Source of the DNA: Burkholderiaceae bacterium
GTDB lineage: Bacteria > Pseudomonadota > Gammaproteobacteria > Burkholderiales > Burkholderiaceae_D
NCBI GenBank assembly: GCA_036560485.1
Contig: DATBRC010000065.1
Location: 1,020 to 65,019, forward strand
Reading direction: 5' to 3'
DNA: 64,000 nucleotides
Position 1 is the stretch's first letter. Every line of letters starts with the position of its first letter. Below are positions 28,088-61,771 of this stretch, in pieces. The position numbers and the translations under genes were made by a program. The notes beneath the pieces were generated by a model. It saw only the letters and a list, made by a program, of their open reading frames with translations, was not told where the DNA came from and made no database searches.

Positions 28088-28096
28088 GAGAATCAG

Positions 28097-30267: not shown

Positions 30268-31596
30268 TTAAATAACGGTAGCTGTTCTGGCCTCATTGCG
30301 CAGGAATCGTTCTTCAATTTCTGCCCGCGTTTTCAACCCGCGTACATCATTCGGCATCACCAGCACGCTGGCATTACCGATAATCTTGTTATGAAAAAGA
30401 TCGTCATGCGCTTGCGCCAATTGATCGTATGAATAAGTATGCGTGTTGATCACATCGATCTTCTTTTTTGAAATCAAGGTATTCGCCTGTCGGCAATCCA
30501 TGAAGTTTGCATAGTGCGAACCGATAATGCGCTTTTGCTGCATCCATAAATGACGCACATCGAAATTCAAATCGTAGCCGGTCGTCGCACCGCAAATAAC
30601 GATGCGACCAAAGCGAGCGGCCAAAAATACTGACGTTGCGAAAGTCTCGCGACCAGAGTGCTCGAATACGATATCAGGCGAACGCTTTTCACCACAGATG
30701 TCCCATATTTTTTTGCCGATCGCTTTCATCATCTGCGCTCTGCGGGTATTGTTTGCGGCAGTTTCGTATTGGTTGAATTCCACATCCTGGATTTCATAAC
30801 CCTTGAATTCAGTACGATTGATGTATCCAAGCGCACCCAATTTCTTGCAGAACTCGCCCTTCTCTTCGCTTGATACCACGGCGATTGCATCCGCACCTAC
30901 TTCACGGCATAACTGGATCGCATACGTGCCCAAGCCCCCTGCACCACCCCAGATCAATGCCAATTCGCCTGCCTTGAGTCCGCCATTAGTAATCAGCATG
31001 CGGTATGCAGTGAAATAGGTCAGCACATAGGACGCGGCATCTTCCCAGGATAGGTGGGCAGGCTTTGGAAGGATTTGCTGAGCTTGCGCAGACACAAATT
31101 GCGCAAAACTGCCGTCCGGCGTTTCATAACCCATGATCGCGACGTTGTGCCCGCTCATCGGATCGAACGATATGAAATTGGGATTGTTCAAGCCGCCATT
31201 GCCATGTTCCAGACATTGCTTGAAACAAGTGACGATGACTTCATCGCCGATCTTGCAGTTCTTCACATTCTTGCCGATCTTCCAGACAATGCCGGATGCA
31301 TCCGATCCGGGAATATGGTATTCCTTCTCGTGCAGATTAAATATGCTGATCGGTTGTCCCAGACCTGCCCATACCGTGTTGTAGTTGACGCCAACCGCCA
31401 TGACACGCACCAGCACATCATTGTCACCAACATCAGGAACAGGAAGGATCTTTTGCACCAATGCGTGCAATGGCTCACCAAAACGATTTTTCTGAATCAC
31501 CCATGCATGCATTTGATTTGGCACGACACCAAGCGCGCCATACTCCTGCAAAGCATAGATGTGAGGGTTCGTATTGCTTGAAGTAAGATTATTCAT
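30268..31596 (-). CDS. ccr: Crotonyl-CoA carboxylase/reductase family enzyme (CCR/ECR)
   Basis: 442 aa that I can align along its length with Streptomyces CCR from memory (MHAWVIQK..., VMAVGVNYNTVWAGLG, GSDASGIVW, GYETPDGSFAQF, VFEHSGRETF, FDVRHLWMQQKRIIGSHYAN). Confidence 0.85.
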   Translation of the reverse strand: MNNLTSSNTNPHIYALQEYGALGVVPNQMHAWVIQKNRFGEPLHALVQKILPVPDVGDNDVLVRVMAVGVNYNTVWAGLGQPISIFNLHEKEYHIPGSDASGIVWKIGKNVKNCKIGDEVIVTCFKQCLEHGNGGLNNPNFISFDPMSGHNVAIMGYETPDGSFAQFVSAQAQQILPKPAHLSWEDAASYVLTYFTAYRMLITNGGLKAGELALIWGGAGGLGTYAIQLCREVGADAIAVVSSEEKGEFCKKLGALGYINRTEFKGYEIQDVEFNQYETAANNTRRAQMMKAIGKKIWDICGEKRSPDIVFEHSGRETFATSVFLAARFGRIVICGATTGYDLNFDVRHLWMQQKRIIGSHYANFMDCRQANTLISKKKIDVINTHTYSYDQLAQAHDDLFHNKIIGNASVLVMPNDVRGLKTRAEIEERFLRNEARTATVI

Positions 31597-31618
31597 GTTA
31601 TCTATACTGCTTCATATT

Positions 31619-34600
31619 TCAAACTGTTATTTGTAAAACCGGCGCATGAATTGACTTGGTTAATTCAATCAAGTTCTTCTGATAGCGTTGCGCAAGCTTT
31701 TCAATATCGGTTATTGCAAACCGGCTCTTGTCGAATGCAAATCTTACCCAGGTTTTTTCTTCCGGAACGATAAAAACACGCAAAGGAAATTGCCAGCCGT
31801 CCGTCCACAATGCCGCAATGGTTTTAATCGGCAGCTCAACTCCGCCAGAATCTGCTCTCGGAATATTCTCGAAAATAAAATTGCTTGAATAAAGGTTGTC
31901 ATTCCCGGTATGTCCAATTGCATTGGCAATCTGCTTCAACGACGGCAGGTTATGCGTTTGTGCTTGGGCATTTGCTCTATGTACAACTTGCAAAAGCTGT
32001 GCCACCGTCATATCCGAAGCTAATGACACACGAACAGGAAGTGAATTGGTGCACTGTCCGATAATTTCTGTAATGCCGTCGAAATCCGCCGAGCGTCCGG
32101 ATACCGTTGCGCCATATACGACATCGTTGGCGCCACTCAACTGCGCCAATGAGAGTGCCCATGCGGCCTGAAATACCGCGTTGCTGGTTGTTTGACTCGC
32201 CCTGGCAGTTTCCTGAACCGAGTTGAGCAAATTATCATCAATGACGAGTTGAGATTCTGCATAAGAATCTTCTGCCTTCGTTATTGAAGAAGAGGCAGAC
32301 ATCAAGCTTTGCAATGGTTCAACGTGGCGATAACCATCGAACGCCTTGCGCCAATGGAGCAGTGCGTCATCGAGTGACTGTCGCTCCAACCAATCGATAT
32401 AGCGTCCAAAATCAGCTTGATTCTGCATTGCCGGCAGATCTTTACCCGATACCATGCTCATCAAACACATGATTAAATCCTTGCTCAACAAACTGGATGT
32501 CCAGCCATCGAGAATGATTTGATGATTCGACATGACGATTGCGAAGCGTCCTGCTTGTGGCGACAGCATGACCCAGTACAGCCGCAATGCTGGCGCCTTC
32601 GACAAATCGTAACGAGTCAATCGATCCTTGACCTGCAATTGCATCAGCGCTTGCTGTTGGCCGGCTTCATCGAGATGTGAATAATCGAGTTCAATCAATG
32701 CAAAATCAGCATGCTTGCAAACGACCTGCGCAGGTTCGCCATTGACATCATGCATGAAGCGTGTACGCAGCACTTTATGACGCGCTACCAGTGCTTGCCA
32801 AACGGCTTGCAGCAGCCTCTTGTCTATCGGCCCTTCCATCACCGTCACTGCCTGCGTAACGTTAGCCAAGGGTTTGCTTTCATCGCTGTAACGCCGATAA
32901 ATCTCAGATTGAAAAGCAGTGAGACCGTAGCAATCTTCAATCTGATCGGCACTGATACCGCATGCCTGCAAAGTCGCATCCGATATCTTATGGCGGGAAC
33001 CTGATGATTGAATTGCATTCCAATCGGCATTGGACAGCGCCTGCAAATTTTCAATCAAAGTGTTCAGCAAACCTTGAATCGTCGCCTCATGATATTGCTT
33101 CTTGCTGAAGTTCCAGTTCAGCGCGATTTGTCCATTCTGGCTATAGGCAATGACATCATGCTGATAAAGCCGTTGGTTGGAAGGATCGCGCAGTGTGCGG
33201 ATCGCATCTTGCGCGTCAGTGGTCATGCCGCCGGCAATCAATTGATTGATCTGGCCGATGTAATTTAAAGAGATTGCCGCTGCCGGTATTTGCGACAACA
33301 TCTTCCTGACAGTCAGGTCGTCATGCAAAGTCTTCAGCCATGCGAGACTTAACCCTTGTTGTGGAACGGATTGAATCTGTGACTTGAGTGAAGCAAGTTG
33401 CGACGTTAATGGCGATGCAGATAATTTCAACGGGATCGGGCTGCCTGTGCCGAACCAGCCGACTGTTCTGGAAAAATCCATAGTATCGAAATCCGGCCGG
33501 CCGTGGTGCACCATATCAATAATAACGTTCGGCTGTTGCTGCCAGTCGCTTATGGTTTTGGCCAGCACCGCAAGCAACAGTTCATTGATCTTCAAGCCAG
33601 TATGCTTGGCTGCCTGCTGTGATAATCGTTGCGTGGAATCAGCATCCAGCGAAGCGGACAATGACGCAATATCGCCCTCCAGATTCGAGCCTCGCGCAAT
33701 ATCGATAGACATTTCACACGGTATCTTCGCTACCTCACCGGCAACATTTTGCCAATACAGAAGATCGGCTTGCAAAGATGCGACCCTGGTCGGCAAACCG
33801 GTAGAAAAATCCTTATACGATGTTGTCTTGGCCGGCAACAGCTTGGCCATATCGGTTTTTCTATCGGTTGCTGACGCAGCCAAAAGCGTCTGCAAGTCTT
33901 CGATCACAATTCCCAGTGAGATTGCATCCATCACCAGATGATGGAAGAGTAGTGCCAGCTTGTTATGTGCAGAATCCGCCGCTTTGAAATAGGCCAGCTT
34001 GAACAGCGGCCCGTTTTCGATATGCATCTCCGATTGCAGCCGCTGGCAATGCTGTTGTACCTGCTCCGAAAAAGCGCCACCTGTTGTCGAAGTCAGATCA
34101 ACCCATGCAACATGCTGATCGCTATTCGCTGACGTGTAGGTCTGTTGCCATGCGCCCTGCTCGTTACGAACAAAATGCGAACGCAGCACGTCATGTTGTT
34201 CCAGCAAGCACAGCACCACCATCTTCAATGCTGGCTCAGAAATAGTCTGCGTGACATTCAGTAATGCTCCGACATTCCAGTGATCCTTGTTGGACCATGA
34301 CGTGTTCAGGAACTGTTGCTGTATCGGCGAACAAGGCGATGTCCCCATGACCAGCGATTGATCGACGATGACAGCATTTGATTTTTTCAGGTTTTTGACG
34401 ATCTCACCAATAGTCGGTGTCGCGAACATTTGCTTGGTCTCCAGGAACAAGCCCATCTTCTTCGCCTTCACGACGATCTTGACGCCCAACAGCGACTCAC
34501 CGCCCAGCTCGAAGAAATTATCATTCACACCGATCTTGCTGATGCCCAGCGTTTCCTGCCAGATGGATGCCAGCAGCTTTTCTTCGTCGGTGGAAGGCGC

Positions 34601-37600
34601 GACATATTCTGTCGATAAACTGGGCCGCTCGTAGAGCGACAGATTATCCTGGCCTGCCGTTGTGTCTGATTCATTGGTATCGAAATCGGCCAACAGCACG
34701 TCCGACATTTTGCGATTCTTGCGCAGCAGCTTCTGAAAGTCAGTGGTCGAGATAACAGCTTGCGGCTTGCCGGACGATAGCGCACGATAAATGACATCGA
34801 TGCCTTCCATCGGCAGGATGGCAGTCTTGTTATCCTGCTGCTTCTGGCGCAGCACACTGTCATTTTGCGCCTTGACGGCTTGCTGCGGCGTATTCCAGAC
34901 ATCCCAATTGATGCTCACATATCGTGTCGCCGGATCATCCCGATGCGCATGTGCGATCGCATCAAGATAGGCACATGCGCTGACATAGCCCACCAGCCCA
35001 TAACCGGTGGTGGCAACCGACATCGATGAGCAAAGCAGAACGAAATCCAGTTTTTCATTCTTCAATACTTGAAGCAAATTGTCAGTACCAGCGACTTTCG
35101 GCGCCAGCACGGCATCGATGATGTCTTTCGATGTTTCCTTCACCGTCACGAACTCGCCATAACCGGCGCAATGAATCAAGCCATTGATAGCGCCGACATT
35201 CTTACGTATCTGCTCGACTGCATCAGCCAATTGCGCTGCATCGGTTACGTCAGCCTGCACAACCGTGACGGTCGCGCCTTGAGCCTGCAAGGCCTTGATT
35301 CCTTTGATCTGCTCTTTCAGCAGTGCATTCTCGTTTGCATCGGCAAGCAATGCATTCCACTTTTCTTCAGCCGGGAAAGCGCTACGCTGCAGCAATACCA
35401 AACGCGTCTTGTATGCAGCCAATGCTTGTGCATGCACCATGCCGACACCACCCAGACCGCCAGTGATGACGTAGATGCCATTTTGTTTGATATCGACATG
35501 CTGACCTGCATTGTCTTCGGTCACTAAAGGAATGTAATCTTTAACAAAGCGTAAGTTGTTTCTGAGCGCAATGGATGTATGGACTACTGAAGCGCCATTT
35601 TGCGCTGTCAGTATTTGCAACTCATTGAGAACAAACCGTATGAAATCCTCTGGCTTTGTTGTCGCCGCATTCACATCCAGCGTGACAAAACGGATATTCG
35701 GATGTTCATACGGAATGACGTTCGCCGGGCCGGTAATCAACGCCTGTGAGCAATCAACCTGGTCGGCATCCAATATGGCTTCGCGCTGATTGGTAATGCC
35801 GACGATGTTGACCATGTCGCTGTTGTTCGCCTCTAGTGCCTTCGCAAGATAGACGAAACTCAAATGAAGATTGGTGCGCAGTTGATCCTGATCTGTGGCA
35901 GATGACAAACTCCAGCCATGAAAAATTGTTTTGGGTGTCGCGTTTAAATCGATGAGGCGTTTAAGCAATAGTTGATAGTCGTTGCTGTTACCGGCAGCAA
36001 TTTCAAAATTATCTTGATCAATTTCGCTAAACTTTGCTCCCTGCGTCACGCAAACGACACGCGTGCCCTTCGTGCGCAATTGCACAATCACACCCTCACC
36101 ATAACGACGATCGTCAAGCAATGCCAATACTGTGCCTTGATCATCAGCTGCTGCTTGCGCCGGCTTGCGCTCTTCGAGGCGCCAACCTGGTTGCCATAAC
36201 CAATCCGCTATCGGCAGCTTTGCACCAGCGTGCGCAACGTCTTTCCTGTTCTCTACCCAATAACGCTTGCGATCAAACGGATAACCTGGCAAGCCGATGC
36301 GCTTGCGCTTTTCATCGGCATAAAAAGCTTTCCAATCAATGTCGATACCGGCGATCCACAGCTTGCCCATTGTTTCCAGCAAATGCGATTGATCGTCCTT
36401 CTCTTCCTTGATGTGTCTGAGCGTATTCAACAGCACTGCTTCCGATTTTTCCGGCAGTTGAGCGCGGACGAAACTACTAAGCGCATTGCCTGGTCCCATT
36501 TCAAGGAATATCGTATTGTCGTCTTTAAGCAGCATCGCTACGCCGTCAGAGAAAAGAACGGTCCGGCGCAAATGATTTTTCCAGTAATCTGCCGTGCTGA
36601 TTTCGCTTTGTTCGGCCCAGCCACCTGACATGTTCGAGATAAACGGGATCGACGATTTACCGAACTTGACCTTCGATAAGAATTGCCCGAATTCCTGCAT
36701 GATCGGATCGATCATCGGCGAATGACCCGCCGTATCGATCAACAATTTTTGATACTCGATCTGCTTCGCATCCAGCAGTTTGCCAAATTCCAGCATTGGT
36801 GTATGCCGTCCGGCCACAACGCAACGGCCCGGATCATTGATGGTCGCAATCGACACACCATCAATCAACATCGTTTTGACTTGCTCGGCAGGCAATGTCA
36901 CGCTGAACATGCTGCCCTTCTCGATTTTTTCGAATAGAGCGCCTCTGAAGCAAATCAGATCCACTGCCTGTTCCAAAGTGAATATGCCTGCTATGCAGGC
37001 TGCGGTGTATTCGCCCAAACTGTGGCCGATCATTGCATCGGGCTTTACTCCCCATGACATCCACAGTTTGGCCAAGCTGTATTCGACCGCAAACAAAGCA
37101 GCAAAGAAATTTTTCGGCTTTTGCAGAATGACGCTATGCGGTTCGGTGTGTGCGTCATCCGGATAAATCAAATCGATCACATCCAGATCCATCTTGCGCT
37201 TGAACAAGGCAGCACATGTATCCAATGTCTGCTTGAAATATGGCTCCTGCTCATACAGGTCGCGCGCCATATTCACATATTGCGTACCGCCGCCTGGAAA
37301 CATGAATACGATTTTCTTTTGTTTCTCCGGTCTCTTGCCTGCAAATCCTTTGGTCGGCGCAATGTTCGGCGCAATGCGACTTAGTTTTTCTGCGGGCACC
37401 ACGAAAGCGCGGCGAAAGCCAAAACCTTTACGGCCAACTTGCAATGTATAGGCAACATCGGCAATGCTTTCGTCGGAAGTCTTGGCCATGTAAGCAGAAA
37501 GATTTTCCGCCATCCTGTCGAGCGCGCTCGGCGTCTTGGCTGACAAAAGCAATAATTGCCACGATCGGCTTTCCGACGATTCCGCTTCCGGCGCTTCTTC

Positions 37601-38932: not shown

Positions 38933-38964
38933 GCTGTCGTTTCGTTTATGAAGGTGATTTGATA

Positions 38965-53900: not shown

Positions 53901-56900
53901 CACGCGCCAGGTCGAATGGCTGCCACGCTTCTTCTTCAGTCAATGCGTGAAGCGCATTGAATTGCGCAAGCTGCTCGCGATCCGACAGATCGATTTTCTT
54001 CAGCTCAAATTCGACCGGATCGCGAATGATTTGGTGTGGCAACCCATCCTTTACATCATAGACGGTGCGCAGAATCTCATGACGGCCGATGAACGCATCA
54101 AATGCCTTCTCCAGTGCGGCCGCATTCAACTCGCCGGACAATTCGATCGCCGCCGGCATGTTGTACTGTGCCGCAATGGTATCGATCTCATTGACGAGCC
54201 AAAGACGCTGCTGCGCATACGACAGTGGCAATGTCTCTTCACGCGAAACACGTTTGATCGGATGACTCTCAAGTCCGGAGGCCTGTTCAATCAATGCGGC
54301 AAGTGCATGCAACTCTTGCGCTTCGAACGCTCGCTTGATCGGAAATTCGATTTTCCAGCGGTCACGTACTTTTGCGACCATGCGCATCGCCAACAGAGAA
54401 TGGCCGCCAAGATCGAAGAAATTATGGTTGATGCCGATTCGGTCAACATTCAGCAATTCACACCAGATAGCGGCAAGGCCTTCCTCGACACCGTTGCGCG
54501 GAGCGACATACTCGGTACTTATCAGACTGCTGATATAAGGTTTCGGCAGACGCTTCTTGTCCACCTTGCCGTTGACACTGAGCGGTAATGTATCGATTGA
54601 GATGAAGGCTGATGGAATCATGTAGCTTGGCATCGATTCCGCCAAATGACTGCGCAATACATCAGCATCGATCGTACCTTCTTCCGGAACGATATACGCA
54701 ACCAGCCGCTTATCACCGGGTACATCTTCACGCGCCATCACAACGGCATCGCGCACTGCCGGCAATGCGGCCAGTGCAGATTCAATCTCGCCAAGCTCGA
54801 TACGGAAGCCGCGAATTTTCACCTGATCGTCAATGCGGCCCAGGTATTCGATATTGCCATCCGGCAGATAGCGCGCCAGGTCGCCGGATCGATACATCCT
54901 TGCACCGGACTCTGCACTAAAAGGATTCGGAATAAATTTTTCTGCAGTCAGGTCGGGACGGTTCAGGTAGCCACGCGCCAGGCCGACACCGGCGATATGC
55001 AATTCACCGGCAACACCAACCGGAGTCGGGTTACCGTATGCATCGAGAATATGGATCTGGATATTGGCAATCGGTTTGCCGATCGGGACGCAATGCAGAT
55101 CGGTATTTTCTCGGCATTGCCAGAACGTGACATCGACCGATGCTTCGGTCGGGCCATACAGATTATGCAGTTCAACGTGACGAAGCTGTGCAAAGAAGCG
55201 CCGTTGCAATTCAATCGGCAATGCTTGTCCGCTGCAAATAACCTGTCTCAAGCTGCCGCATAATTTCGTCTCTGCCGTGCTCAAGAACACTTCCAACATC
55301 GGCGGCACAAAGTGCAGCGTCGTGATCGCTTGCGATTGAATCAGTTCCGCCAAATACTGTGCATCCTGATGGCCGCCCGGTTTGGCGACAACCAGAGTAG
55401 AACCATATAAAAGCGGCCAGAAAAATTCCCACACCGAGACATCGAAACTGAACGGGGTTTTTTGCAAGACACGATCGGCGGCAGTCAGCCGATACGCTTG
55501 TTGCATCCATTGCAGACGATTGACAATCCCGGCATGCTCAACGCCAACGCCCTTAGGACGTCCAGTCGATCCGGAAGTAAAAATGACATAAGCGAGATTG
55601 CGCGCGACAGTATGGTTTTCAGGATTGCTGGTGGCGTACGCTTCGACTTCATGCCACTGCGTATCAAGACAGAAGGTTTTGGTATCGCTTGCCGGCAAAT
55701 TTTCCAATAAATGCTGCTGCGTCAACAGTACCGGCGGCTTGCAATCCGACAGCATGAATGCCAGACGATCTTTCGGATAATCGGGATCAAAAGGCACATA
55801 GGCGCCGCCCGCTTTTAAAATGCCATACAGACCGATCACCATTTCAATCGATCGCTCAACGCAAATCCCTACTTGTACATCAGGACCGACTCCGATGCTG
55901 CGCAAATAATGCGCCAGCTGATTTGCCTTGGTGTTCAATTCGGCATAGGTTAGCGCGGTATCTTCAAATACCAATGCCGTGTGATTTGGCGTACTTGCAA
56001 CCTGTGCTTCAAACAATTGATGCAGCGTCAGATTCTTGGGATAGTCGACTGCCGTATCGTTGAATACATCAAGGAGCTGATGTCTTTCATTTGCATCAAG
56101 CAAAGACAAATTGCTCAAGCACTCACTTGGCGCACTCACAATTTCCGCCAGCAAGTGTTTGAAATGCGATGACAGCCGGTGTATTGTTGCCTCGTTAAAC
56201 AAATCGGTCTTGTACTCCAGATGACCTGTGAGCCCCGCTTCACCTTCGGCCAATTCCAATGTGATATCGAACTTTGACGTCTTGGATGCAATCGTATTTT
56301 TCCGTACTGTGACACCGGGTAATGACAAGCTGTTTTGGTCTATGTCCTGCAGCACAAACATCACCTGGAACAGCGGCGATGTCGTCAAATCGCGCTCTTT
56401 CTGCACCAGGTCAACCACCTTTTCAAACGGCAGATCCTGATGTGCATAGGCATCGACCGTTAACGCTCTGATGTCCTGCAATAAATCGCTGAACATCGGA
56501 TCGCCGCCATAGTTGGCACGCATAGCCAGCGTGTTAACGAAAAAGCCCATCAGGTTTTTCGTTTCCATCATCGTGCGGTTTGCGATCGGAGTCCCTACAC
56601 AAATATCGTCCTGACCGCTGTACTTGTGCAGCAACACGCCAAAAGCAGTCAACAGGGTCATATACAGTGTGACGCCGTGTTCCTTGCTCAAGGCTTTCAA
56701 TTGATCCGTCAGCTCTGCATCCAGTTGCAGCGGAATTGAATTGCCTGAATATGTCAGCGTTGCCGGCCTGATTTTGTCGACCGGAAGCTCCAGCGGTGTC
56801 ACACCATCCAACTGCGATTTCCAATATTCTTCCTGCCGTTGCAGCACGTCTCCGGTCAAATAATCACGTTGCCAGGCCGCATAATCAGGATATTGAATCG

Positions 56901-59487
56901 GCAATGGAGATAAAGGCGATGTCTGTCCGTTTGAATAAGCCGCATACAACGTAGCAAGCTCATTCATCAATACCGAAATCGACCAGCCATCCGAGATGAT
57001 GTGGTGCATGCATACAACGAGGGAATACGCGCCGTCCGGCTGCTTGTACACCGCCGTGCGGAATAAAATATCCTGTGACAGATCAAAAACGAAATGCAAT
57101 TCCTTGTCGATTGCCTCATCGACCTCGGCTTGATTCCGATCGCTCATGTCAATCACGCTGAGATTCCAGTCATGCGCATCGCCGATGACCTGCATCGGTT
57201 CGAAATTCTCGACAACGAAACGCGTTCTCAATGCATCGTGACGACGCATGATTTCCTGAAAACTCCGATCCAGCGCCTGAACATCAAGATCGCCCTCGAT
57301 ACGCAATACGCCATGAATGTTATACAAAGCGCTTGCTTCATATTGCATCAGGAACCACATGCGTTGCTGCGCAAAAGACAATGGATAACGATTACCGTGT
57401 GTCGCAATCGGTGTAATGCGCTGGCGCTTGTTGGCAGGATCAAGCAATTTTGCGTTCAACGCTGCAGAAAGTTTCTGAACTGTTTCATATTCGAACAAGT
57501 TCTGCACCTGCAAATTGATATCGAGTTCGTCCGATATCCTTGCCGCGATTTGCGTCAGCGTCAGCGAATCCAATCCATAACCAATAAATGCCACATCGCG
57601 CTGCATCGTGCCGGCAGATAATTTTGCGTAAGCTTCGAACAACGCTGCAATGTAATCTTCGACAGCAGCCGTTCTCTTCGGCTCCGGCAATGCAAGCCAG
57701 GCTTCCTTGTCAAAACGCTTGATGTCTTCAACGGACATATCGGCAGATTTGTCGATGCGGCCGATCGCTTCAATTTGATGATCAAGAAATTGTTGTTTGC
57801 AGCGTTGACGTTGTACCTTGCCGCTTGATGTCTTCGGTAATTGCCCAGGCTTGATGAAGACAATACTGCGTACCTGCAGCTCATGCTGCAAGACGACTGC
57901 TTGCTGAATGGCGCGTGCCAATGCTTCCGGATCGAATGTTCGCAAATACGTGCGACGTATTTCCAGCACGATGACAAGTTGTTCCTGGCCTTTTTCTTCG
58001 ACTGTAAAAACCGCCGCGCCATTCGGCATGAAAGCTTCATGACTTTCAAACGCAGTCAATTCTATATCCTGCGGATAATGGTTCATGCCGCGGATGATCA
58101 CTACATCCTTCAAGCGGCCGGCAATATACAGTTCGCCCTGATGCACAAAGCCAAGGTCGCCCGTGCGCAGGTACGGGCCTTCCTTTGTATCCGATGTATA
58201 GGCTGCGAAAGTCGTTGCCGTTGCATCCGGCCTTTGCCAGTATCCCTTGGCATTGCTATCGCCATACGCCCAGATTTCGCCAACTTCGCCATCGGCACAT
58301 CGCGTCATGGTATCCGGATCGACGATCACCACACCTTGCTCGCAACGCGCAGAACCACAGCTTACAAGCTCATGTCCCGTCGCATGTGCATCCACCATCA
58401 CAGCACGTTTCTGCTGCAACCGGCTTTCATCAAAATACGAGGTGCGTGTACCCTTGCCAGGCTCAGCGCCGGTTATCAGAAGCGTCGTTTCGGCCATGCC
58501 ATAACAGGCATAGTGCGATGACGGATTAAAGCCGCAGCGGCTGAATTTATCGCTGAATGCACGTAGCGTTTCCGGACGTATCGGTTCTGCGCCATTGAAT
58601 GCAATGCGCCATGAATGTAAATCCAGTTGAGCGAGCTCTTCATCGTTGATGCTGTCAACGCAAAGATCGTAAGAGAAGTTAGGACCGCCGCTAGTGGTTG
58701 CCCTGTATTTGGAAATCGCTTCCAGCCAACGCATCGGACGTTGCAGGAAAGAAGCCGGCGCCATCAAGGTCGATGGGATACCAGCATATATCGGTTGCAA
58801 TACATTGCCGATCAAGCCCATGTCATGGAACAAAGGCAGCCACCCAACGACAACGGTGTCTGGTCCATGCCCCATCGCATCATAAATACTGCGCGAGTTG
58901 GCCATCAAGTTAGCGTGCGTAACCATCACGCCTTTTGGATCGCCGGTCGAGCCCGACGTGTATTGCAAGAAGGCGATATCGTCGGCCTGCACCTGCGGCA
59001 GCGCCACATCTTCCACGTGATCATTACCGGCAATATCGGTAATCACCCATGCCAGGGATTTGAGTTCATCCACTTCGACAAATTGCGGTTCGGCTATCAA
59101 TTGCGTCTGCAAATCAGTCATGGCCACTTTGGCCTGACAGTTTTGCACCAACGATTTCAAACGGCCTAGTTTCTGATTGCGCTTCGGTGGGTACCCAGGG
59201 ACGGCAATCACACCGGCGTATAGGCAGCCGAAGTAGGCAGCGATGAAATCTATGCCGGATGGATAAAGCATCAACGCCCGATCACCAGGCCGGCACTTCA
59301 TTAATAATTGTTTTGCGATTTGACGGGCGCGGGAATCCAGCGCCTTGAAAGTAATCGTATCTTCTTCAACGCTGGTTGCGGAATAGGACAAGAACCGAAA
59401 TGCAAGCACATCAGGCTGAATACTGGCTCTGTATGACAACAAGTCTACAAAAGTCTTGATTGATTCAGGTACTACCGTGCCCACCAT
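38965..59487 (-). CDS. Giant NRPS, 6840 aa: FAAL-ACP-(C-A-T)x4-C-[A remnant]-AL-KR-T
   Basis: GAGGG SD lies 8-9 nt before the ATG at 59487. Five HHxxxDG C domains, four TSG(S/T)TG A domains with GGHS carriers, and two FAAL-like ANL domains. See the domain features below. Confidence 0.95.
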   Translation of the reverse strand: MVGTVVPESIKTFVDLLSYRASIQPDVLAFRFLSYSATSVEEDTITFKALDSRARQIAKQLLMKCRPGDRALMLYPSGIDFIAAYFGCLYAGVIAVPGYPPKRNQKLGRLKSLVQNCQAKVAMTDLQTQLIAEPQFVEVDELKSLAWVITDIAGNDHVEDVALPQVQADDIAFLQYTSGSTGDPKGVMVTHANLMANSRSIYDAMGHGPDTVVVGWLPLFHDMGLIGNVLQPIYAGIPSTLMAPASFLQRPMRWLEAISKYRATTSGGPNFSYDLCVDSINDEELAQLDLHSWRIAFNGAEPIRPETLRAFSDKFSRCGFNPSSHYACYGMAETTLLITGAEPGKGTRTSYFDESRLQQKRAVMVDAHATGHELVSCGSARCEQGVVIVDPDTMTRCADGEVGEIWAYGDSNAKGYWQRPDATATTFAAYTSDTKEGPYLRTGDLGFVHQGELYIAGRLKDVVIIRGMNHYPQDIELTAFESHEAFMPNGAAVFTVEEKGQEQLVIVLEIRRTYLRTFDPEALARAIQQAVVLQHELQVRSIVFIKPGQLPKTSSGKVQRQRCKQQFLDHQIEAIGRIDKSADMSVEDIKRFDKEAWLALPEPKRTAAVEDYIAALFEAYAKLSAGTMQRDVAFIGYGLDSLTLTQIAARISDELDINLQVQNLFEYETVQKLSAALNAKLLDPANKRQRITPIATHGNRYPLSFAQQRMWFLMQYEASALYNIHGVLRIEGDLDVQALDRSFQEIMRRHDALRTRFVVENFEPMQVIGDAHDWNLSVIDMSDRNQAEVDEAIDKELHFVFDLSQDILFRTAVYKQPDGAYSLVVCMHHIISDGWSISVLMNELATLYAAYSNGQTSPLSPLPIQYPDYAAWQRDYLTGDVLQRQEEYWKSQLDGVTPLELPVDKIRPATLTYSGNSIPLQLDAELTDQLKALSKEHGVTLYMTLLTAFGVLLHKYSGQDDICVGTPIANRTMMETKNLMGFFVNTLAMRANYGGDPMFSDLLQDIRALTVDAYAHQDLPFEKVVDLVQKERDLTTSPLFQVMFVLQDIDQNSLSLPGVTVRKNTIASKTSKFDITLELAEGEAGLTGHLEYKTDLFNEATIHRLSSHFKHLLAEIVSAPSECLSNLSLLDANERHQLLDVFNDTAVDYPKNLTLHQLFEAQVASTPNHTALVFEDTALTYAELNTKANQLAHYLRSIGVGPDVQVGICVERSIEMVIGLYGILKAGGAYVPFDPDYPKDRLAFMLSDCKPPVLLTQQHLLENLPASDTKTFCLDTQWHEVEAYATSNPENHTVARNLAYVIFTSGSTGRPKGVGVEHAGIVNRLQWMQQAYRLTAADRVLQKTPFSFDVSVWEFFWPLLYGSTLVVAKPGGHQDAQYLAELIQSQAITTLHFVPPMLEVFLSTAETKLCGSLRQVICSGQALPIELQRRFFAQLRHVELHNLYGPTEASVDVTFWQCRENTDLHCVPIGKPIANIQIHILDAYGNPTPVGVAGELHIAGVGLARGYLNRPDLTAEKFIPNPFSAESGARMYRSGDLARYLPDGNIEYLGRIDDQVKIRGFRIELGEIESALAALPAVRDAVVMAREDVPGDKRLVAYIVPEEGTIDADVLRSHLAESMPSYMIPSAFISIDTLPLSVNGKVDKKRLPKPYISSLISTEYVAPRNGVEEGLAAIWCELLNVDRIGINHNFFDLGGHSLLAMRMVAKVRDRWKIEFPIKRAFEAQELHALAALIEQASGLESHPIKRVSREETLPLSYAQQRLWLVNEIDTIAAQYNMPAAIELSGELNAAALEKAFDAFIGRHEILRTVYDVKDGLPHQIIRDPVEFELKKIDLSDREQLAQFNALHALTEEEAWQPFDLARDLMLRATLIKLSDKRHTLLVTMHHIASDGWSTGVMVKELAELYSAFVENRSASLPDLRYQYADYSAWQRKTLAGHKLNSLVSYWRSQLANLPSVHNLPLDHARQAQSSHEGGVVAQIISANTSASLHHVAKENDATLFMVLHAAFAGLLHRYSGETDIVLGTPVANRDLVELEPLVGLFVNTLVVRSDFSEDLDFTALLSQSKSTLLDAYEQQDLPFEMLVNEMQVERSQSVNPLFQVMLVFQSGGENRLKLAGLEAAEIRETALATKFDLTLNIVESDQGLKLNWEYAKDLFDEATIHRLANSFAILLDAVTQSPQIAVKRLPLVTESDRHTLLSNCNAYANDAFEPVCSHLLFEEQVAKTPNAIALQFNEQTMTYEELNRRANLVAHYLIANGVKPDTLIGLCAERSLELVVAMLGILKAGGAYVAFDPTYPSDRLRYLLEDSGVKLVMTQTSLSHVLPINGQRLVFIDNNVLFDALSSEDIPVAKLGLTPDSLAYVIYTSGSTGNPKASLLMHKGLSNLAQAQKEFFHVDGNSHVIQFASFAFDAATSEIFMALCAGACLHIMSKEIAQSGTDLSDYVARKGITHATLPPALLSVLDRSMWQSVAHLVVAGEQCPLGLMKEWSHDRNFYNAYGPSEATVCSSIGRLTPASDVVHIGKPMRGVQLYVLDELMQPTPVGVAGQLYVGGCGVGRGYLGRDELNKEKFVDNPFGSGKLYATGDLTRWLNDGNLEFIGRIDNQVKLRGFRIELGEIETALSKQPGVIDSIVVLHKDRDNNQRLVAYLVIEHDAFNAEALRRHLAQSMPNYMIPSIFVPVQQFPMTPNGKVDRKRLPEPDIASLVKTEYVAPGNQIEVGLAAIWGELLKLEKVGINNNFFDLGGHSLLAIQVISRIKEGFGVQLKVADLFVYTNIAALAKRIAEASSKDALLPQVEPRADSNIVPLSLEQQSYWFLYEMEGGTATYNIPTAMRLTGKVDIPALEQSFAALIQRHESLRTIFVVENGAPLQQVLPSPEFKLIIDSKKDNRYKEILDKQIELDARHVFDLKKEIPIRAVLHKLYDDDYVLTVLLHHTMADGWSLGILMGELAQLYNAHVAQKENPLAPLQVQYGDYAVWQKQNLVGAYYEKQVGYWRDKLKGVPPMIDLPTDYPRPPVQSYRGREVGFVLPFELTQALNAFSRKNNTTLFNTLLAGLNVLLSRYSRSEDIVVGTAIANRSQTNLEPLIGCFANTLVLRNKVDQTRSFIDLVKRVNGVVFDAYEHAEVPLDVVVDAVQPERSLGVPPLFQVMFRLHNHKTGQGIQFADLEAELINIESESAKLDLNFSLAETDAGIEGILEYATDLFSEKTVRRITRHFQLLLESAMVHPDAEVESLNLLSKEEFDLVENWNNTVVPYPTDECVYHLFEQTCAKMPAKLAYVCGNDRFTYAELNAKANQLAHYLQSIGVGPEVRVGVSVGRTSWAGVSMLAVFKAGGTYVPLDPKYPRERIDIMLDVVKPKIILTTDEISELFDDRIAQVIHVEQIQETVASKPTENLPHIGADHSAYILFTSGTTGRPKAILISHRSFRNMPESHRWAKLHSPNNRVLQFASLSFSISMWDSFMAWVPGGTLIAVTQDEALPGESLYGLLEREKVTHATWPVSLLSTLPVERMPNSLQTIISSAEPCNDAVVARWTARGVRFLNMYGNSEVSLGSTLYEYHKVGQKLTIGVAFPNTRMYLLDRHLRQVPIGVIAEIHTAGAGLATCYWDNPEATANSFIPNPFAKGKPERLYKTGDLGRYLPNGEIEFIGREDFQVSIRGFRVELVEIENVLRAAPGIAEVVVVSQLDANKVGRLVCFYVEKPDAQGLDAGQLRALVSRKLPSYMVPSLFVKLDAMPLTPNRKVDRLGLPKPTLDDDQSIAYVAPRNPLEEKIAAIWTEVLGQKNISVNRNFFEIGGHSLLAVQVVSRVKDGLGLPLTIKDLFTHTTVESLAIFLAGQEDTPGTALPAISKREETGSIPLSLDQKPYWFLHQLEGGSYTYNIPFAMRMHGELNVTALQKTFHALIERHESLRTLFPSRDGEPLQAIVPASEFKLQIVQVAEEDVEEQVRADFTYIFDLENELPIRIRLLSIADDNHVVTLVVHHVVADGWSLNILMNELIALYSSFSAGKPSPLPQLELQYGDYSQWQQKNIVGDTFNKQTDFWKKKLDGLAPLLNLPLDYPRPPIQSYRGKELPISLPFSLTARLNQYARQHNTTLYNLLLSGLAILLSRYGRTNDIPVGTAVANRPQKELEPLIGCFANTLVIRCRVNAKDNFQQLVAAVGNEALEAFSNSSVPFDGVVEAVQPERSLGVPPIFQVMFRLHNQQMAQTSSFAGLRSELINLPTQSAKLDLNFSLAETGDGLKGVIEFATDIFSEQTVARIAKHYQTILEAAMSDSTIAIEKLSVVTQEEMEQVRRWNATDIDYPQDECMHHLFERTVQRMPNKLAYVCGDDRFTFAELNARANRLAHFLQSRGVGPEARVGVSVERSTWAGISGLAVAKSGGTYVPIDLNYPKDRIERMLDVAKPKIILTLEHLKPLFADTGAEIVALDTEWDAIQSQPISNPPRIGAGHSAYILFTSGTTGKPKGILVGHRAFRNMANSQQWAGLHTPDSRVLQFASLSFSIAFWGTYMAWVPGGTIYSVTSKENLPDEPLYEFMEENQITHVTWPVSLLSTVPVDRMPKSLRVVVSSAEPCNDAVVAKWTALGVRFLNLYGNSEVSIGSTLYEYRQVGEKLTIGKAFPNTQMYLLDENLKQVPIGVIAEIHTAGVGLATCYVDDPVATAKSFIPNPFSDDRTSRMYKTGDLGRYLPNGEIEFIGREDFQVSIRGFRVELTEIEDVLRTVPGIVEVVVNSRDDEQGLARLVCFYARLDHAHHLTSAELRKVVSEKLPNYMVPSLFVELDAMPLTPNRKIDRLALQNYPLNEGEDDLYVAPKSPVEKRLADIWSGILNIQDIGTHHDFFELGGHSLLATKIVARVRSEFSVELSLQQFFENSTIERLAVVIEHANASYVENPIRILDQRDKVPLSFAQQRLWFLDRYEENSNFYHMPSVMKIVGDLDVDALNHAFVTLIGRHEVLRTNFISDQGQGFQKIHSSIDWAMDVIELEGGTVEEKEAEFSAYIDAQLKTAFNLESDALLRVSLCKFADDEYRLFINMHHIIADGWSINILINEITALYSANVSKTPAKLKDLPVQYADYAVSQIEYLQGPVLTQQSVYWSKKLKDLTTLSLPLDFERPRNQTYNGDRASFVIDKAMVAALDELSHHQGATLFMTLLSAFNVMLGKYSGDTDISIGTPIANRVRAEIEPLIGFFANTLTLRSDLDGDPTFAALLQQVKKTTLEAYSNQDIPFEKVVDLVLPERDPSRSPLFQVSFSFQQNAAANSFTLPGITIDNIALENKTAKFDLLLEFMTTPDGLSGSFEYNTDLFKRETIQGFVSAFIHLLNAIIASPQHKVSGLSLAPDNAITPASITLDAYPILRALYGKAIVSESDIANYYLLDATGNAVPHGVVGKLYFEIKGQTDTSTLLNGRIAEVNINGRLYKLLASGFTARQTANGLVLLSSVDDVALINNQLVYPRVVEQQLLTRPDVQDCHVAIREHAELGNQIVVYLVCKDEEPDAEDFTQYLQSSGFTDINVFACVKVGAIPLTRHGEVNARQLYKYAVHNPVTRQLWTGKVSQIGKINEAVVISQMISEQQPVSHLLDLLPIEARGTSGNAASIVSKTRKINNESISKSPALIISEPIIEVIRRPNSLADMIINTAQVHGDKVIEFYHADNSTTSMSYVKLLHKAQCVLGGLRATGLTVGSKVIFQFDRNEDFIVSFWACELGGFIPVPIAAAKNYRTSNAQTVKVAHAWNMMDKAIVLAGENIVEGVRHIGTLEKIDAFDVHEITSLYEAEPAHDFHQGASDDVALIMLTSGSTGLPKGVQLTHANLIGRTLGSAQMNGFHSDMVSLNWMALDHVGGIIYFHIRDAYLGATQVQADTDYILADPLRWLRLIDQHRVNITWAPNFAFALIVERQEELKKLTLDLSCLHFMLNGAEAVVPKTTQAFIELLQQFKLAEDSVKPVYGMSEISSGVTYAKRLQLTYGSDDTVFVSVGRPIPGVNMRIVDEHDQVMMEGQSGRLQVSGVTVTKGYLGGENVNKDVFTQDGWFKTGDLAFIQNGELTITGREKDVIIINGVNFYGHEIAEVVETVPGVVVSYTGACAVRRNGSNSDQLAIFFNTAQKGEPLLGLIKLIRQAVVEKIGINPSFIVPVEKDQVPKTEIGKIQLIKLAQSFNRGEFDYALRALDLAERNENTLPDWSFSKTWVQKRLNNVVELSPVGATLVFADFAGCAAALGLSGHVITVTQGQAYQDRGDSYQINPGVQEHYVQLVASLTQRSITISRVVNLWDYESNARTADALLTKATLSDAIGLYSAWYLAQAFAALETPPTMRWIWAARKAQCVNGSDVISPDKAATLALMKTLPKEFAWLKCHHVDFEGNDIADHAAWLKREIVTYHAIDEVAYRDGKRLVVRLRKERRVIREKREMPLVSGGGYLISGGLGGIGYELARMLLKQFNAKLLLIGRTPLEKLPADKKDMLDQLAGMGNVQYADADICNHAAVESAVDKAEAEWKQKLAGVFHLAGLAHEEAMAGQTIHSLHDVLRAKTSGTRVLYNICNHRTDTLFVNFSSVNGFFGGSGMAAYNIGNRYQEAFVESVRDNKNVRSVCISWSLWHDTGMGSQYKQAESLSKALGFTPIVASKGLFSMLVVLYHGRRNVLIGLDDTRPNIRQLVTDVQPSDRQLVCYFAANEPGITNEVAAEAVLTDEFGLSLHVQYIQVESLPKTASGEIDLAALRKTFAQSGSAKVEKIAPRDELEETLTAIATSVFGAAEPIGIKDNFFDVGANSLLIVKLHHEIQQQMNIEFPMVELFNSTTIEKLAIFLGQHGGQTPAPAADAARNAGQERRAAMQRRNRSRERKTSR
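39058..42660 (-). other. Second FAAL-like acyl ligase (AL)-KR-T tridomain at the NRPS C-terminus
   Basis: LIMLTSGSTGLPKGV (Thr5792, 42112-42114), YGMSEISS, FKTGDLA. KR SGGGYLISGGLGGIGYEL (40201-40260) and GMAAYNIGN. Carrier FFDVGANSLL (Ser6765, 39193-39195). Confidence 0.7.
42853..43497 (-). other. Adenylation-domain remnant (only A6-A10-like C-terminal part; no A1-A5, no carrier)
   Basis: YYLLDATGNAVPHGVVGKLYFEIKG (43321-43380) ... IPLTRHGEVNARQL (about 42880-42930). I found no TSGxTG, FDxS or YGPTE motif and no GGxS after it. Confidence 0.6.
43498..44808 (-). other. C5 condensation domain
   Basis: VPLSFAQQRLWFL (Pro4902 at 44782-44784) and MHHIIADGWS (44341-44400 region). Confidence 0.75.
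44809..47946 (-). other. Module 4, C-A*-T; near-duplicate of module 3 (code SIWTVSLIGK)
   Basis: VHHVVADGWS. LSFSIAFWG with Ser4501 (45985-45987). NLYGNSEVS. PNRKIDR. Confidence 0.7.
47947..51102 (-). other. Module 3, C-A*-T; non-canonical A domain (code SIWTISMLGK)
   Basis: LHHTMADGWS. LSFSISMWD with Ser3453 (49129-49131) where Asp235 is expected. NMYGNSEVS instead of NxYGPTE. PNRKVDR. Confidence 0.7.
51103..54252 (-). other. Module 2, C-A-T; A-domain code DASTVAAVCK (aromatic/Tyr-like)
   Basis: MHHIASDGWS. FAFDAATSE (Asp2409, 52261-52263). ATLPPA, VVAGE, NAYGPSEATVC. Confidence 0.6.
54253..57402 (-). other. Module 1, C-A-T; hand-extracted A-domain code DVWHISLVDK (Ser-like)
   Basis: MHHIISDGWS. 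FSFDVSVWE (Asp1349, 55441-55443). HFVPP, ICSG, NLYGPTEASVD. T Ser1697 (54397-54399). Confidence 0.7.
57403..59487 (-). other. Loading region: fatty acyl-AMP ligase (FAAL)-like domain plus ACP
   Basis: FLQYTSGSTGDPKGV, YGMAETT, LRTGDLG, PKTSSGKVQRQ. ACP motif GYGLDSLT (Ser641, 57565-57567). Confidence 0.8.
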
Positions 59488-59973: not shown

Positions 59974-60183
59974 ATGAGTCACCGAGAAGACAGTGATGAA
60001 ACCATCTATAAGGTTGTCATCAGTCACGATGAACAATACTCAATATGGCCCGCACACAAAACCCCTGCACGTGGCTGGAGTGAGACTCAAACGCAAGGCA
60101 CCAAGGGAGAATGTCTGGCATTCATCAAGAGTACCTGGACCGACATGCGTCCAAAAAGCTTGCGGGACAAGATGGTTAATTGA
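59974..60183 (+). CDS. MbtH-like protein
   Basis: GGAGACAAGG precedes the ATG at 59974. Sequence ...YKVVISHDEQYSIWPAHKTPARGW...LAFIKSTWTDMRP carries the MbtH Trp signature. Confidence 0.9.
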   Translation: MSHREDSDETIYKVVISHDEQYSIWPAHKTPARGWSETQTQGTKGECLAFIKSTWTDMRPKSLRDKMVN

Positions 60184-60255: not shown

Positions 60256-61005
60256 ATGCAAAACGTACCCAACTCCTGCTTTATACGCCCCAAACCGGTT
60301 GCCCATCCGCGTGTGCGCCTGTTCTGTTTTCCGTATGCAGGAGGATCGGCTGCGATTTATCACCAGTGGCCCGTACACGTCTCCACAGACATAGAACTAC
60401 TGGCAGTGCAATATCCGGGCCGCGCTACTCGCCTGCGAGAATCGCCGCGTAAAGATCTGAATCTTCTGCTTGATGATATTGAAGAAGCCATCACACCGCT
60501 TCTGAACAGACCGTTTGCCTTCTTCGGACACAGCATGGGTGCAACGGTCTGCTATGAGCTCACACGACGCCTGCATGCCAAACAAAAGCCGTTGCCCATG
60601 TATTTGTTTCTTTCAGGCCGTAGCGCACCGCATCTGCCTGCAGTAAAACCCCCGGTTCATAACCTGCCCGATAAAGAATTTCTTGAGTCGATGCGCAATC
60701 TGAACGGCACGCCGACAGAGCTTCTCGAACATAGCGAGCTGATGGAAATGATGCTGCCGATCATTCGCGCAGATTTTCAATTATTGGAAACATGGGAGTA
60801 TCAAGCTTCGCCTCCACTAGACATCCCGGTGTCGGTTTTTGGCGGACTTGCCGACGATGGTGTGCCACTGGCAAATCTGGATGCATGGGCTGCCTGCACG
60901 ACCGGTAAAATGAAACGCCACATGTTTCCCGGCGATCACTTTTTCCTGCATCAGCAATATCCGGCCATGTTAAACATCATCAATCGTGCGCTCAGCAGTG
61001 AATGA
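60256..61005 (+). CDS. Type II (editing) thioesterase
   Basis: 249 aa with LFCFPYAGGSAAIY and GHSMGA, typical of GrsT/TEII. Confidence 0.9.
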   Translation: MQNVPNSCFIRPKPVAHPRVRLFCFPYAGGSAAIYHQWPVHVSTDIELLAVQYPGRATRLRESPRKDLNLLLDDIEEAITPLLNRPFAFFGHSMGATVCYELTRRLHAKQKPLPMYLFLSGRSAPHLPAVKPPVHNLPDKEFLESMRNLNGTPTELLEHSELMEMMLPIIRADFQLLETWEYQASPPLDIPVSVFGGLADDGVPLANLDAWAACTTGKMKRHMFPGDHFFLHQQYPAMLNIINRALSSE

Positions 61006-61771
61006 CCCTGCCGCACTGAAAGCATTGGAGAGCGAACTGCATGTGTGGATCGCCTATCCGGACAATGCCCCTGCTCAGCATTTAATCGAACAATTTTTGC
61101 CGCTGTTGAATCAGGAAGAGCAAGACCGGTATCGGCGCTTTCATTTCGATCATGATCGCCATACTTATCTTGCGGCTCATGCGCTGCTGCGTATCACCCT
61201 GTCGCGCTACGCGCCATGCGAACCTGCTCAGTGGCGATTTACACGCGGTGCGCAAGGCAAACCCGAGATAGAAGCTAAGATAGAAGCTAAAGCTGATCTG
61301 CCAGCACTCCGTTTTAATTTGAGCCATACGAAAGACATGGTCGCATGTGTTGTTTCGCTGAATAGCGTATGCGGCGTTGATGTTGAGCGTATTAGACCGA
61401 TGAAAGACATGGCAGGCATCGCGGAAACCGTATTCTCAAATGCAGAAGTCTCGTCTTTGCATGCATTGGATGAGGCAGACAGGCCAGATACTTTTTTCAA
61501 AATTTGGACCTTGAAAGAAGCGTATATCAAGGCAATCGGCCAAGGACTTGCCGCACCGCTTAAAGACATTTCATTTGATATTGAAGCGCCATTCATTCGC
61601 GCCAGTTTCAATGGAGAGGAGCTCAACAACACAGGATGGCAATTTCATCATAGGAAACCTATATCTACACATCATCTGGCAGTCACTACGCAATCAATAG
61701 GTTCACCAATTAAAATTGTCTATTCCGACCTTAATCTAGCTGATAATTTAGAAAACACTTTGCAACGCTGA
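60986..61771 (+). CDS. Sfp-type 4'-phosphopantetheinyl transferase
   Basis: GAQGKPEI...FNLSH...GVDVE...FKIWTLKEAYIKAIG. GTG start at 60986 or 60998, overlapping the TEII stop. Confidence 0.9.
   Translation: MRSAVNDPAALKALESELHVWIAYPDNAPAQHLIEQFLPLLNQEEQDRYRRFHFDHDRHTYLAAHALLRITLSRYAPCEPAQWRFTRGAQGKPEIEAKIEAKADLPALRFNLSHTKDMVACVVSLNSVCGVDVERIRPMKDMAGIAETVFSNAEVSSLHALDEADRPDTFFKIWTLKEAYIKAIGQGLAAPLKDISFDIEAPFIRASFNGEELNNTGWQFHHRKPISTHHLAVTTQSIGSPIKIVYSDLNLADNLENTLQR

Follow-up and report, generated by a model that had tools for sequence, protein, structure and literature searches.

What does an assembly line without a thioesterase (TE) make, and how is the finished chain let go? The question is raised by a gene cluster at positions 30268-61771 of a 64,000-nucleotide stretch of DNA (the window) from a Burkholderiaceae bacterium (assembly GCA_036560485.1, contig DATBRC010000065.1), where an earlier note, made from the letters alone, had described two very large genes, a nonribosomal peptide synthetase (NRPS) and a polyketide synthase (PKS)-NRPS hybrid, next to a gene for a crotonyl-CoA carboxylase/reductase (CCR). 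The answer that we propose, and consider probable as a whole, is that these genes encode a TE-less line, primed by a fatty acyl-AMP ligase (FAAL), which makes an N-acyl lipodepsipeptide-ketide hybrid. The cluster is real and intact, its product is an orphan, and its host is a Burkholderiaceae/Oxalobacteraceae-type metagenome-assembled genome (MAG). It is counted as seven genes, those named being the following:

38965 to 59487, minus strand, NRPS, 6840 amino acids (HEY8102378.1, by exact look-up)
31619 to 38932, minus strand, PKS-NRPS, 2437 amino acids
30268 to 31596, minus strand, CCR, 442 amino acids
59929 to 60183, plus strand, open reading frame of an MbtH-like protein, likely ATG start at 59974 (PF03621, E 9e-17)
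60256 to 61005, plus strand, type II thioesterase (TEII; PF00975, E 6e-49)
60986 to 61771, plus strand, Sfp/HetI-type phosphopantetheinyl transferase (PPTase; PF01648 and PF22624; HetI model 131 bits, below its cut-off)

A scan of open reading frames and a Pfam search reproduced the layout that had been described by eye, with three co-directional genes on the minus strand, a gap of 32 nucleotides (38933-38964) between the two megasynthase genes, and the mbtH-like, TEII and PPTase genes running divergently on the plus strand. The later start of the MbtH-like protein is preferred because the Pfam match begins at residue 16. A second protein record, HEY8102377.1, also comes from this locus, and the same locus is found on a JGI metagenome contig and in two Logan assemblies.

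To parse the domains, the NRPS was cut into ten overlapping pieces for Pfam, and the PKS-NRPS protein was searched whole. The resulting order matched almost wholly the string that the earlier note had read motif by motif, and comprises, in residues of each protein and with the condensation (C), adenylation (A), carrier (T), ketosynthase (KS), acyltransferase (AT), ketoreductase (KR) and epimerase-like (E*) domains given in order of synthesis:

57457 to 59418, minus strand, loading didomain of FAAL (24-575) and acyl carrier protein (ACP; 611-677) (PF00501, PF23024, PF00550; NCBIfam FAAL subfamilies)
54289 to 57390, minus strand, module 1, C-A-T (700-1733), A code DVWHISLVDK (Ser)
51145 to 54240, minus strand, module 2, C-A-T (1750-2781), Tyr code
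47995 to 51087, minus strand, module 3, C-A*-T (2801-3831), A code SIW(H/T)ISMLGK, Ser-like pocket with Asp235 replaced by Ser
44857 to 47931, minus strand, module 4, C-A*-T (3853-4877), A code SIW(H/T)VSLIGK, tandem duplicate of module 3
43474 to 44796, minus strand, C5 (4898-5338, MHHIIADGWS), predicted ester-forming C domain
42580 to 43473, minus strand, degenerate A6-A10-like stretch and linker (5339-5636), an N-terminal Asub-like piece with A6/A7/A8/A10-like motifs, in which about 300 residues have no Pfam match
41017 to 42579, minus strand, keto-acid-type A domain (5637-6157, AMP-binding in Pfam) of the McyG/StsA class (6ULW, E 3.5e-207; 4R0M, E 6e-144)
39088 to 40836, minus strand, psiKR-KR (6218-6594), post-KR A9/A10-like fragment YIQVESLPKTASGEIDLAAL, T5 (6737-6800, GANSL) and basic docking tail (Pfam, PDB, motifs)
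37742 to 38875, minus strand, KS (20-397) (PF00109 and PF02801)
36341 to 37309, minus strand, AT (542-864) (PF00698), GHSLGE at residue 636 and TAGHS at residue 734
34892 to 36088, minus strand, psiKR and KR (949-1347) (PF21394 and PF08659), GGLGGVG, no LDD
34394 to 34576, minus strand, carrier of the PKS module (1453-1513, GGESL), like a peptidyl carrier protein (PCP) (PF00550)
33032 to 34345, minus strand, E* (about 1530-1967), Condensation family in Pfam, HHLVMDAIS kept, Glu of EGHGRE replaced by Val (MVHHGRP)
31628 to 32938, minus strand, terminal C (1999-2435, NHQIILDGWT), second of the two Condensation-family domains (positions 2-444 of 456 of PF00668)

Neither megasynthase contains a TE, R, DH, ER or MT domain by Pfam, in agreement with the earlier reading for TE and R, and none of the NCBIfam equivalog models reached its cut-off for any megasynthase piece. 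The core motifs of the A, C, T, KS, AT and KR domains are intact in the window copy, and the reading frames are uninterrupted.

The cluster had been called uncharacterised and its domain order unrecognised. The first part stands, in that literature searches, whose scope did not take in MIBiG, found no characterised member of the family. As to the second, the order is common to about 20 other genomes or MAGs at 48-81% PKS identity, a cultured type strain included, and the tail of the line, together with the CCR, mirrors the antCDE operon considered below. Full-length orthologues of the PKS (2420-2523 amino acids, 48-81% identity) occur in Janthinobacterium sp. 17J80-10, Noviherbaspirillum sedimenti and several MAGs, and six shorter ones (about 1956-2048 amino acids), including that of Paucimonas lemoignei, have no E* domain. 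The loci compared with the window were:

L005, Paucimonas lemoignei, GCA_004342585.1 contig SLZQ01000001 at about 440-482 kb, NRPS of 6839 amino acids, PKS and CCR
L009, soil MAG, NRPS of 6930 amino acids, PKS and CCR
L008, Logan assembly SRR26541466, NRPS of 6810 amino acids, PKS and TEII
L007, GCA_036675285.1, NRPS (cut by the contig end), PKS and CCR
L004, Noviherbaspirillum sedimenti QYUQ01000002.1, shortened version with one amino-acid module
L010, Paucimonas MAG, PPTase, TEII and MbtH genes divergent from an NRPS that starts with FAAL

The Paucimonas domain order was pieced together from the N-terminal 4039 residues in L010 and the C-terminal 3321 residues in L005, and the Pfam domain counts of the two parts equal the order in the window. 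L010 was also the one true relative that a profile search of genome contigs with the FAAL-ACP alignment returned. Around the cluster the flanks differ in every genome compared. By tblastn, the CCR (78-83% conserved beside the PKS in L004, L005, L007 and L009), the TEII (L004, L008, L010), the PPTase (L004, L010) and the MbtH-like protein (58% identical in L010) recur in the related loci and the flanking genes never do, so that synteny fixes the borders of the cluster at 30268 and 61771, where they had been drawn before. On the strength of these comparisons, the cluster is no one-off but one member of an orphan family that recurs in Oxalobacteraceae-like bacteria. In N. sedimenti (L004, 4198-15391), a single amino-acid module with a Gln-like code (DAWQFGLINK) precedes the keto-acid module, and two reading frames (4198-10206 and 9863-15391) overlap and split a C domain, which looks like a module deletion combined with a frameshift or a sequencing error.

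The priming of the line by a FAAL, already proposed from the letters, was borne out by comparison with solved structures. The loading domain matched FAALs best (7R7E-G, E 1e-165; 3KXW, 1e-136; FadD23, FadD32, FadD28 and 3PBK, 1e-98 to 1e-70), and A domains of NRPSs did no better than 1e-42; judged by these matches, the loading domain is of the FAAL class and the assignment is solid. Directly downstream, the carrier recognised by PF00550 at residues 611-677 holds the serine motif GLDSL. The first two A domains, previously described as Ser-like and aromatic-like, gave codes in keeping with this. The first was the Ser code DVWHISLVDK; the second aligned as DAS-VAAVCK, position 278 falling in a gap, and was read by eye as DASTVAAVCK, and the aligned A2 of L010 gave DASTVAAVCK outright, which is the tabulated Tyr code of CepA (PMC11355689). 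Residue 1 varies in the family, being Ser by its code in the window and Gln-like in L010 and L004. The motif HHxxxDG (HHxxxDGWS) is present in all five C domains of the NRPS, and no dual E/C motif HH[ILVM]xxxxGD was found there, which leaves a hidden epimerisation in the NRPS without support.

Modules 3 and 4 are tandem copies, 58% identical, and their A domains, marked A* here, are those that had been singled out as aberrant. Their pockets resemble the Ser pocket of A1 (W239, H278, I299, S301), with Asp235 replaced by Ser and Asp331 by Gly, and the A5 motif reads YGNSE instead of YGPTE, the remaining core motifs being intact. In the HMMER alignment of A3 with LgrA, FSISMWD stands opposite FDGSALD, which confirms the loss of Asp235, the residue that holds the substrate's alpha-amino group in A domains for amino acids (PMC11355689). 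The same signature is found in L005, L008, L009 and L010. Our guess is that A* might load a Ser analogue that lacks the alpha-amine, such as glycerate, or carries its amine elsewhere, such as isoserine. An apparent closeness of A3 to the Gly domain of LgrA (512 bits) was rejected as an artefact of two ordinary A-domain matches that had been summed. The C domains of the two modules, C3 and C4, form a pair of their own, with 53% mutual identity and 35-40% to the other C domains, which may be tied to the unusual A* acceptor substrate. Both are without the usual Arg in the N-terminal C1 motif, reading LSLEQQSYWF and LSLDQKPYWF, as against LSxAQQRLWF in C1, C2 and C5.

Module 5 had been read as an A remnant followed by AL-KR-T and listed among the unusual features of the locus. 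The domains are there as described; what did not hold is their novelty. The last 1502 residues of the NRPS are collinear with the solved keto-acid initiation module StsA (6ULW; query 260-1467 against chain 70-1309, E 3.5e-207), and the A part also matches McyG. By homology, module 5 is an established keto-acid A-KR-T depsipeptide module and not a novel one. Its KR has the Gly motif for NADPH binding (GGLGGIG) and the catalytic Tyr (in AAYNIGN; PF08659, E 6.8e-37), and the code extracted from its A domain is VGIHPTVSGK, from a pairwise alignment to an amino-acid A domain that is weak (score 192). The architecture with split Asub-like pieces was reportedly described by Alonzo et al. in 2020, and the pseudo-Asub reading of the flanking fragments draws on the PDB match and on that architecture. 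The A-KR-T unit is found in hundreds of proteins, in some alone (about 1400 amino acids) and in others after a C domain; the source organisms are Deltaproteobacteria, Acidobacteria, Ktedonobacter, Streptomyces, Kutzneria, Paenibacillus and cyanobacteria. One stand-alone protein, P0016, begins at query residue 117, inside the supposed remnant and at its A8-like motif, and is collinear through to the carrier. A profile search of genome contigs with the A-KR-T region as a single-protein query gave no match. As in StsA and in the A-KR-T modules of the cereulide, valinomycin and kutzneride type, the A domain, psiKR-KR, post-KR Asub fragment and T are collinear, Asub-like fragments stand on both sides, and an upstream C domain is intact. 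The differences are that the module of the window would elongate a chain within a FAAL-primed line and pass its product to a PKS, and that its N-terminal remnant is longer and also has A6/A7-like motifs. In modules of this type a keto acid is selected, reduced by the KR and joined by an ester bond (PMC11355689), and the function predicted for C5 follows the same C-A-KR-T logic (PMC11355689, PMC3869250). Since module 5 is of a known type, an ester bond, which the earlier note had allowed as a possibility, was right but understated, being the outcome to be expected.

From the NRPS, the chain would move to the PKS. At the C-terminus of the NRPS stands a strongly basic tail (38965-39070; RRAAMQRRNRSRERK) that is conserved in L005 and in L007-L009, and at the N-terminus of the PKS a strongly acidic segment, EEHDDYDD (38840-38932; with DDYDD in it), that is conserved in the orthologues; the two are a probable electrostatic docking pair that would fix the order from NRPS to PKS. 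The KS is 71-93% identical among the orthologues, and the TAGH motif of the AT, noticed earlier, was found again at residue 734. All 23 PKS orthologues have (T/A)AGHS. AAGHS stands in place of TAGHS in L008, P0146, P0147 and P0127, and in L008 a TEII, not a CCR, lies behind the PKS. The sequences suggest that AT motif and CCR presence may co-vary with the extender unit. The CCR of the window exceeded the cut-off of the equivalog model TIGR01751 (456.9 against 378.55 bits); its best PDB match was 4GI2, deposited as a crotonyl-CoA carboxylase/reductase, and the second was AntE (4Y0K, 318 bits), above the deposited CCRs 3HZZ, 3KRT and 6OWE. It is predicted to supply ethyl- or alkyl-malonyl-CoA. 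The KR of the PKS has HCAGYGEF where the B-type has LDD, no diagnostic Trp, and YVSAC for the usual YAAAN.

The end of the PKS-NRPS protein has neither of the usual release domains, TE and R. The carrier of the PKS module matches PCPs of NRPSs in the PDB. For T-E*-C as a whole the best solved match is PvdL, an internal T-E-C cassette of which aligns collinearly (E 1.6e-135); this agrees with the series of PCP-type carrier, E-like domain and C domain that had been read by eye. E* matches best the E domains of PvdL, TycA and GrsA (E 1e-62 to 1e-38), with HHLVMDAIS opposite HHLVVDGVS; in the HMMER alignment, 'dmvhhgrp' stands opposite 'QLEGHGRE', and the score on TIGR01720 is 65.3 bits, below the cut-off of 74.2. 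E* is present in 17 of 23 orthologues, all 17 having V, I or Y at the position of the EGHGRE Glu. In the terminal C domain, the second, catalytic His of HHxxxDG is Gln (residue 2139), and every one of the 23 family members has HQIILDGW, the six without E* among them. Its nearest solved structures are TycB C1, McyB and SrfA-C, it is only 22-24% identical to C1-C5, and the protein ends two residues after it. No acceptor A-T gene lies beside the PKS in six loci (window, L004, L005, L007, L008, L009), and no other conserved release enzyme was found across the related loci. Within the family, E* is 36-73%, the terminal C 41-79% and the KS 71-93% identical, all in frame. As E* and the terminal C stay in frame where the whole PKS is only 48-52% identical, they look selected and not decaying.

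A close parallel is the antimycin operon antCDE of Streptomyces, in which AntC is C-A(Thr)-T-C-A(pyruvate)-KR-T, AntD is KS-AT-ACP-TE and AntE is a CCR; acylmalonyl-CoAs come from AntE, beta-keto reduction is the work of a separate KR, AntM, and closure of the dilactone that of the TE (PMC3869250). The gene order NRPS-PKS-CCR is the same in both, and in both a keto-acid C-A-KR-T module is followed by a single KS-AT with a CCR-made alkylmalonyl extender and by beta-keto reduction. By contrast, the starter predicted for the window is a fatty acid loaded through a fused FAAL-ACP instead of 3-formamidosalicylate; where antimycin has one Thr module ahead of the keto-acid module, the window has four modules, the last of them with A*; the KR is in cis, whereas AntM is discrete; the carrier is PCP-type and followed by E*-C, with no PF00975 in the PKS, whereas AntD ends in a TE; and the host is a proteobacterium instead of Streptomyces. 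Among the neighbours (MbtH, TEII, PPTase, hydrolase and ABC importer only), no starter or formylation genes like antFGHIJKLNO were found. By its predicted domain logic, the cluster acts as the last part of the antimycin line does, but it is not itself an antimycin-type cluster, because it has no aminosalicylate starter genes, no preceding Thr module and no TE, and has its KR in cis.

Other systems share single parts of the design. PvdL of the pyoverdine pathway also has, at its N-terminus, a fatty acyl-AMP ligase and carrier in one protein with the NRPS and ahead of C-A-T modules, and the PvdL-like NCBIfam model PRK05691 was the best match for FAAL-ACP (627 bits) and for T-E*-C (501 bits), both far below its cut-off of 4090. 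It differs in that the window has no chromophore-forming Dab module, its E* lacks the Glu, and the C domain after E* lacks the His and is not followed by A-T. A terminal C domain has been proposed to macrolactonise in FkbP (FK520) and in AprL of apratoxin (PMC3075265). As in FkbP/RapP, AprL and the fungal CT domains, there is no TE or R, and a C-family domain comes last, after the last carrier; the one in the window differs from these by following the carrier of a PKS module, by being DCL-like, by its HQxxxDG, and by usually standing behind E*. Its similarity to the fungal CT domain of TqaA is weak (E 6.5e-11). For the cyanobacterial chlorosphaerolactylate (cly) pathway, the text mentions FAAL and C-A-KR-T (PMC7923214). 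According to the abstract, its product is a simple acyl lactylate, which sets it apart from the present line, and the likeness is one of description only (PMC7923214).

In the mechanism that we propose, steps 1 to 4 follow from homology to domains that have been solved or characterised, and step 5, the release, is what we infer. The PPTase would prime the seven carriers, and the FAAL would adenylate a free fatty acid and load it onto the fused ACP. C1 would N-acylate Ser on T1, C2 would add Tyr, and C3 and C4 would add two copies of the Ser-like unit X, giving acyl-Ser-Tyr-X-X. In module 5, the A domain would load an alpha-keto acid, the embedded KR would turn it into an alpha-hydroxyacyl thioester, and C5 would form the ester. 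The chain would then go over to the PKS, from the basic tail of the NRPS to the acidic N-terminus and the KS behind it. The AT, of the TAGH type, would load an ethyl- or alkyl-malonyl unit supplied by the CCR, and the KR would leave a 2-alkyl-3-hydroxy acyl thioester on the PCP-type carrier. Finally, the terminal HQxxxDG C domain would release the chain, most likely by intramolecular esterification to a macrolactone, with the Glu-less E* in an accessory role and the TEII as an editor. This kind of release is the one that we favour, although only tentatively, because antimycin ends in a macrolactonisation and because the terminal C domains of FK520 and apratoxin have been proposed to act likewise. 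Candidates for the ring-closing nucleophile would include the Tyr and a hydroxyl carried by the fatty acid or by one of the X residues.

Several points weigh against this explanation. No product is on record, and the cluster is known here from its genes alone; the codes of A3 and A4 and that of the A domain in module 5 name no substrate; and the KR of the PKS, having neither LDD nor the diagnostic Trp, is not assignable to a stereochemical type by the usual rules. The terminal C is without its catalytic second His and E* without its Glu, so that either could be inactive. Moreover, an antimycin-like closure on the hydroxyl of residue 1 was rejected for the family as a whole, as this residue is Gln-like in L010 and L004.

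The missing catalytic residues could have other meanings. They are what one would expect if E* and the terminal C were dead relics and the chain came off as a linear acid or a small lactone, either by itself or through the conserved TEII, and a TEII is in fact found in every locus whose relevant flank was seen (window, L004, L008, L010). We think this quite unlikely: E* (36-73%) and the C domain (41-79%) have stayed in frame across lineages whose PKS is 48-52% identical, the invariance of HQIILDGW argues for purifying selection on a function, and TEIIs are usually editing enzymes. The same replacement of His by Gln, which all 23 orthologues have and which does not resemble a normal C domain for elongation, also speaks against the idea that the terminal C is just such a domain, part of an E-DCL cassette whose acceptor A-T(-TE) is encoded elsewhere, in which case the cluster would be incomplete and the real product longer. 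The collinearity of T-E*-C with a cassette that lies between modules in PvdL would fit such a role, as would the nearest solved C domain, TycB C1, which accepts a D-configured donor, and proteins that end in a C domain and partner with an A-first protein do exist, microcystin McyE being an example. Against it, no A-T gene stands beside the PKS in any of the loci inspected for one, the flanks being different everywhere, and six orthologues have dropped E* yet kept the terminal C; we hold this alternative to be unlikely. That the whole cluster might be a silent or decaying relic without a product is very improbable. The N. sedimenti copy, which has lost three modules and has overlapping frames inside a C domain, could be cited for decay, but the reading frames of 6840 and 2437 amino acids in the window are uninterrupted with their core motifs intact, and an identical CCR occurs in four independent assemblies, three of them shown to have the same neighbours.

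A more specific combination can be considered, namely that the HQxxxDG C domain, with or without the Glu-less E*, is a new TE-independent off-loader of a PCP-held, polyketide-extended chain, and that the A* pair loads a Ser analogue that is not an alpha-amino acid (glycerate, isoserine); both together would be possible but rather doubtful. The product of the family would then be a new ester-rich lipodepsipeptide-ketide scaffold from Oxalobacteraceae. With the collinear cluster of the Paucimonas lemoignei type strain, the window offers a defined and culturable entry to an orphan natural-product family. This family, in Proteobacteria, brings lipoinitiation together with depsipeptide chemistry and with polyketide chemistry fed by a CCR, and raises three testable questions of enzymology: the substrate of a Ser-type A domain without Asp235, the role of a Glu-less E* on a PKS carrier, and release by a C domain with His changed to Gln. 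The understanding of NRPS-PKS systems is left unchanged, as orphan hybrid clusters are common and this one mostly follows known rules.

As for the surroundings, the earlier note had stated that the window holds no transporter and no regulator. This was mistaken, as a Liv/Urt-type ABC importer lies at 24023-29200 and FlhDC at about 22449-23379; both are outside the cluster by synteny, and the error is harmless. The importer comprises five genes on the plus strand, for a periplasmic binding protein, two ATPases and two permeases, with NCBIfam scores below the equivalog cut-offs. It was rejected as a transporter of the cluster on account of its absence from all six related loci. Between it and the cluster, an alpha/beta-fold hydrolase of 283 amino acids (29394-30245, plus strand; PF00561, PF12697, PF12146) runs convergently with the CCR gene and ends 22 nucleotides from its stop. 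As a candidate release enzyme it was discarded for the same absence, and by this comparison its gene is probably outside the cluster. In the tblastn of the six related loci, the hydrolase, the importer, an open reading frame of 130 amino acids and a Y1 transposase were never matched. This transposase, an IS200-like Y1 family protein of 242 amino acids (62610-63338, minus strand; PF01797), lies 0.8 kb past the PPTase and may be REP-associated. FlhDC belongs to a flagellar/chemotaxis region on the minus strand (window about 1-23400), for which the gene calls of the source contig give FlhD, FlhC, MotA and MotB. MotA/MotB are also found about 6 kb past the CCR in L009, a hint of a common insertion neighbourhood.

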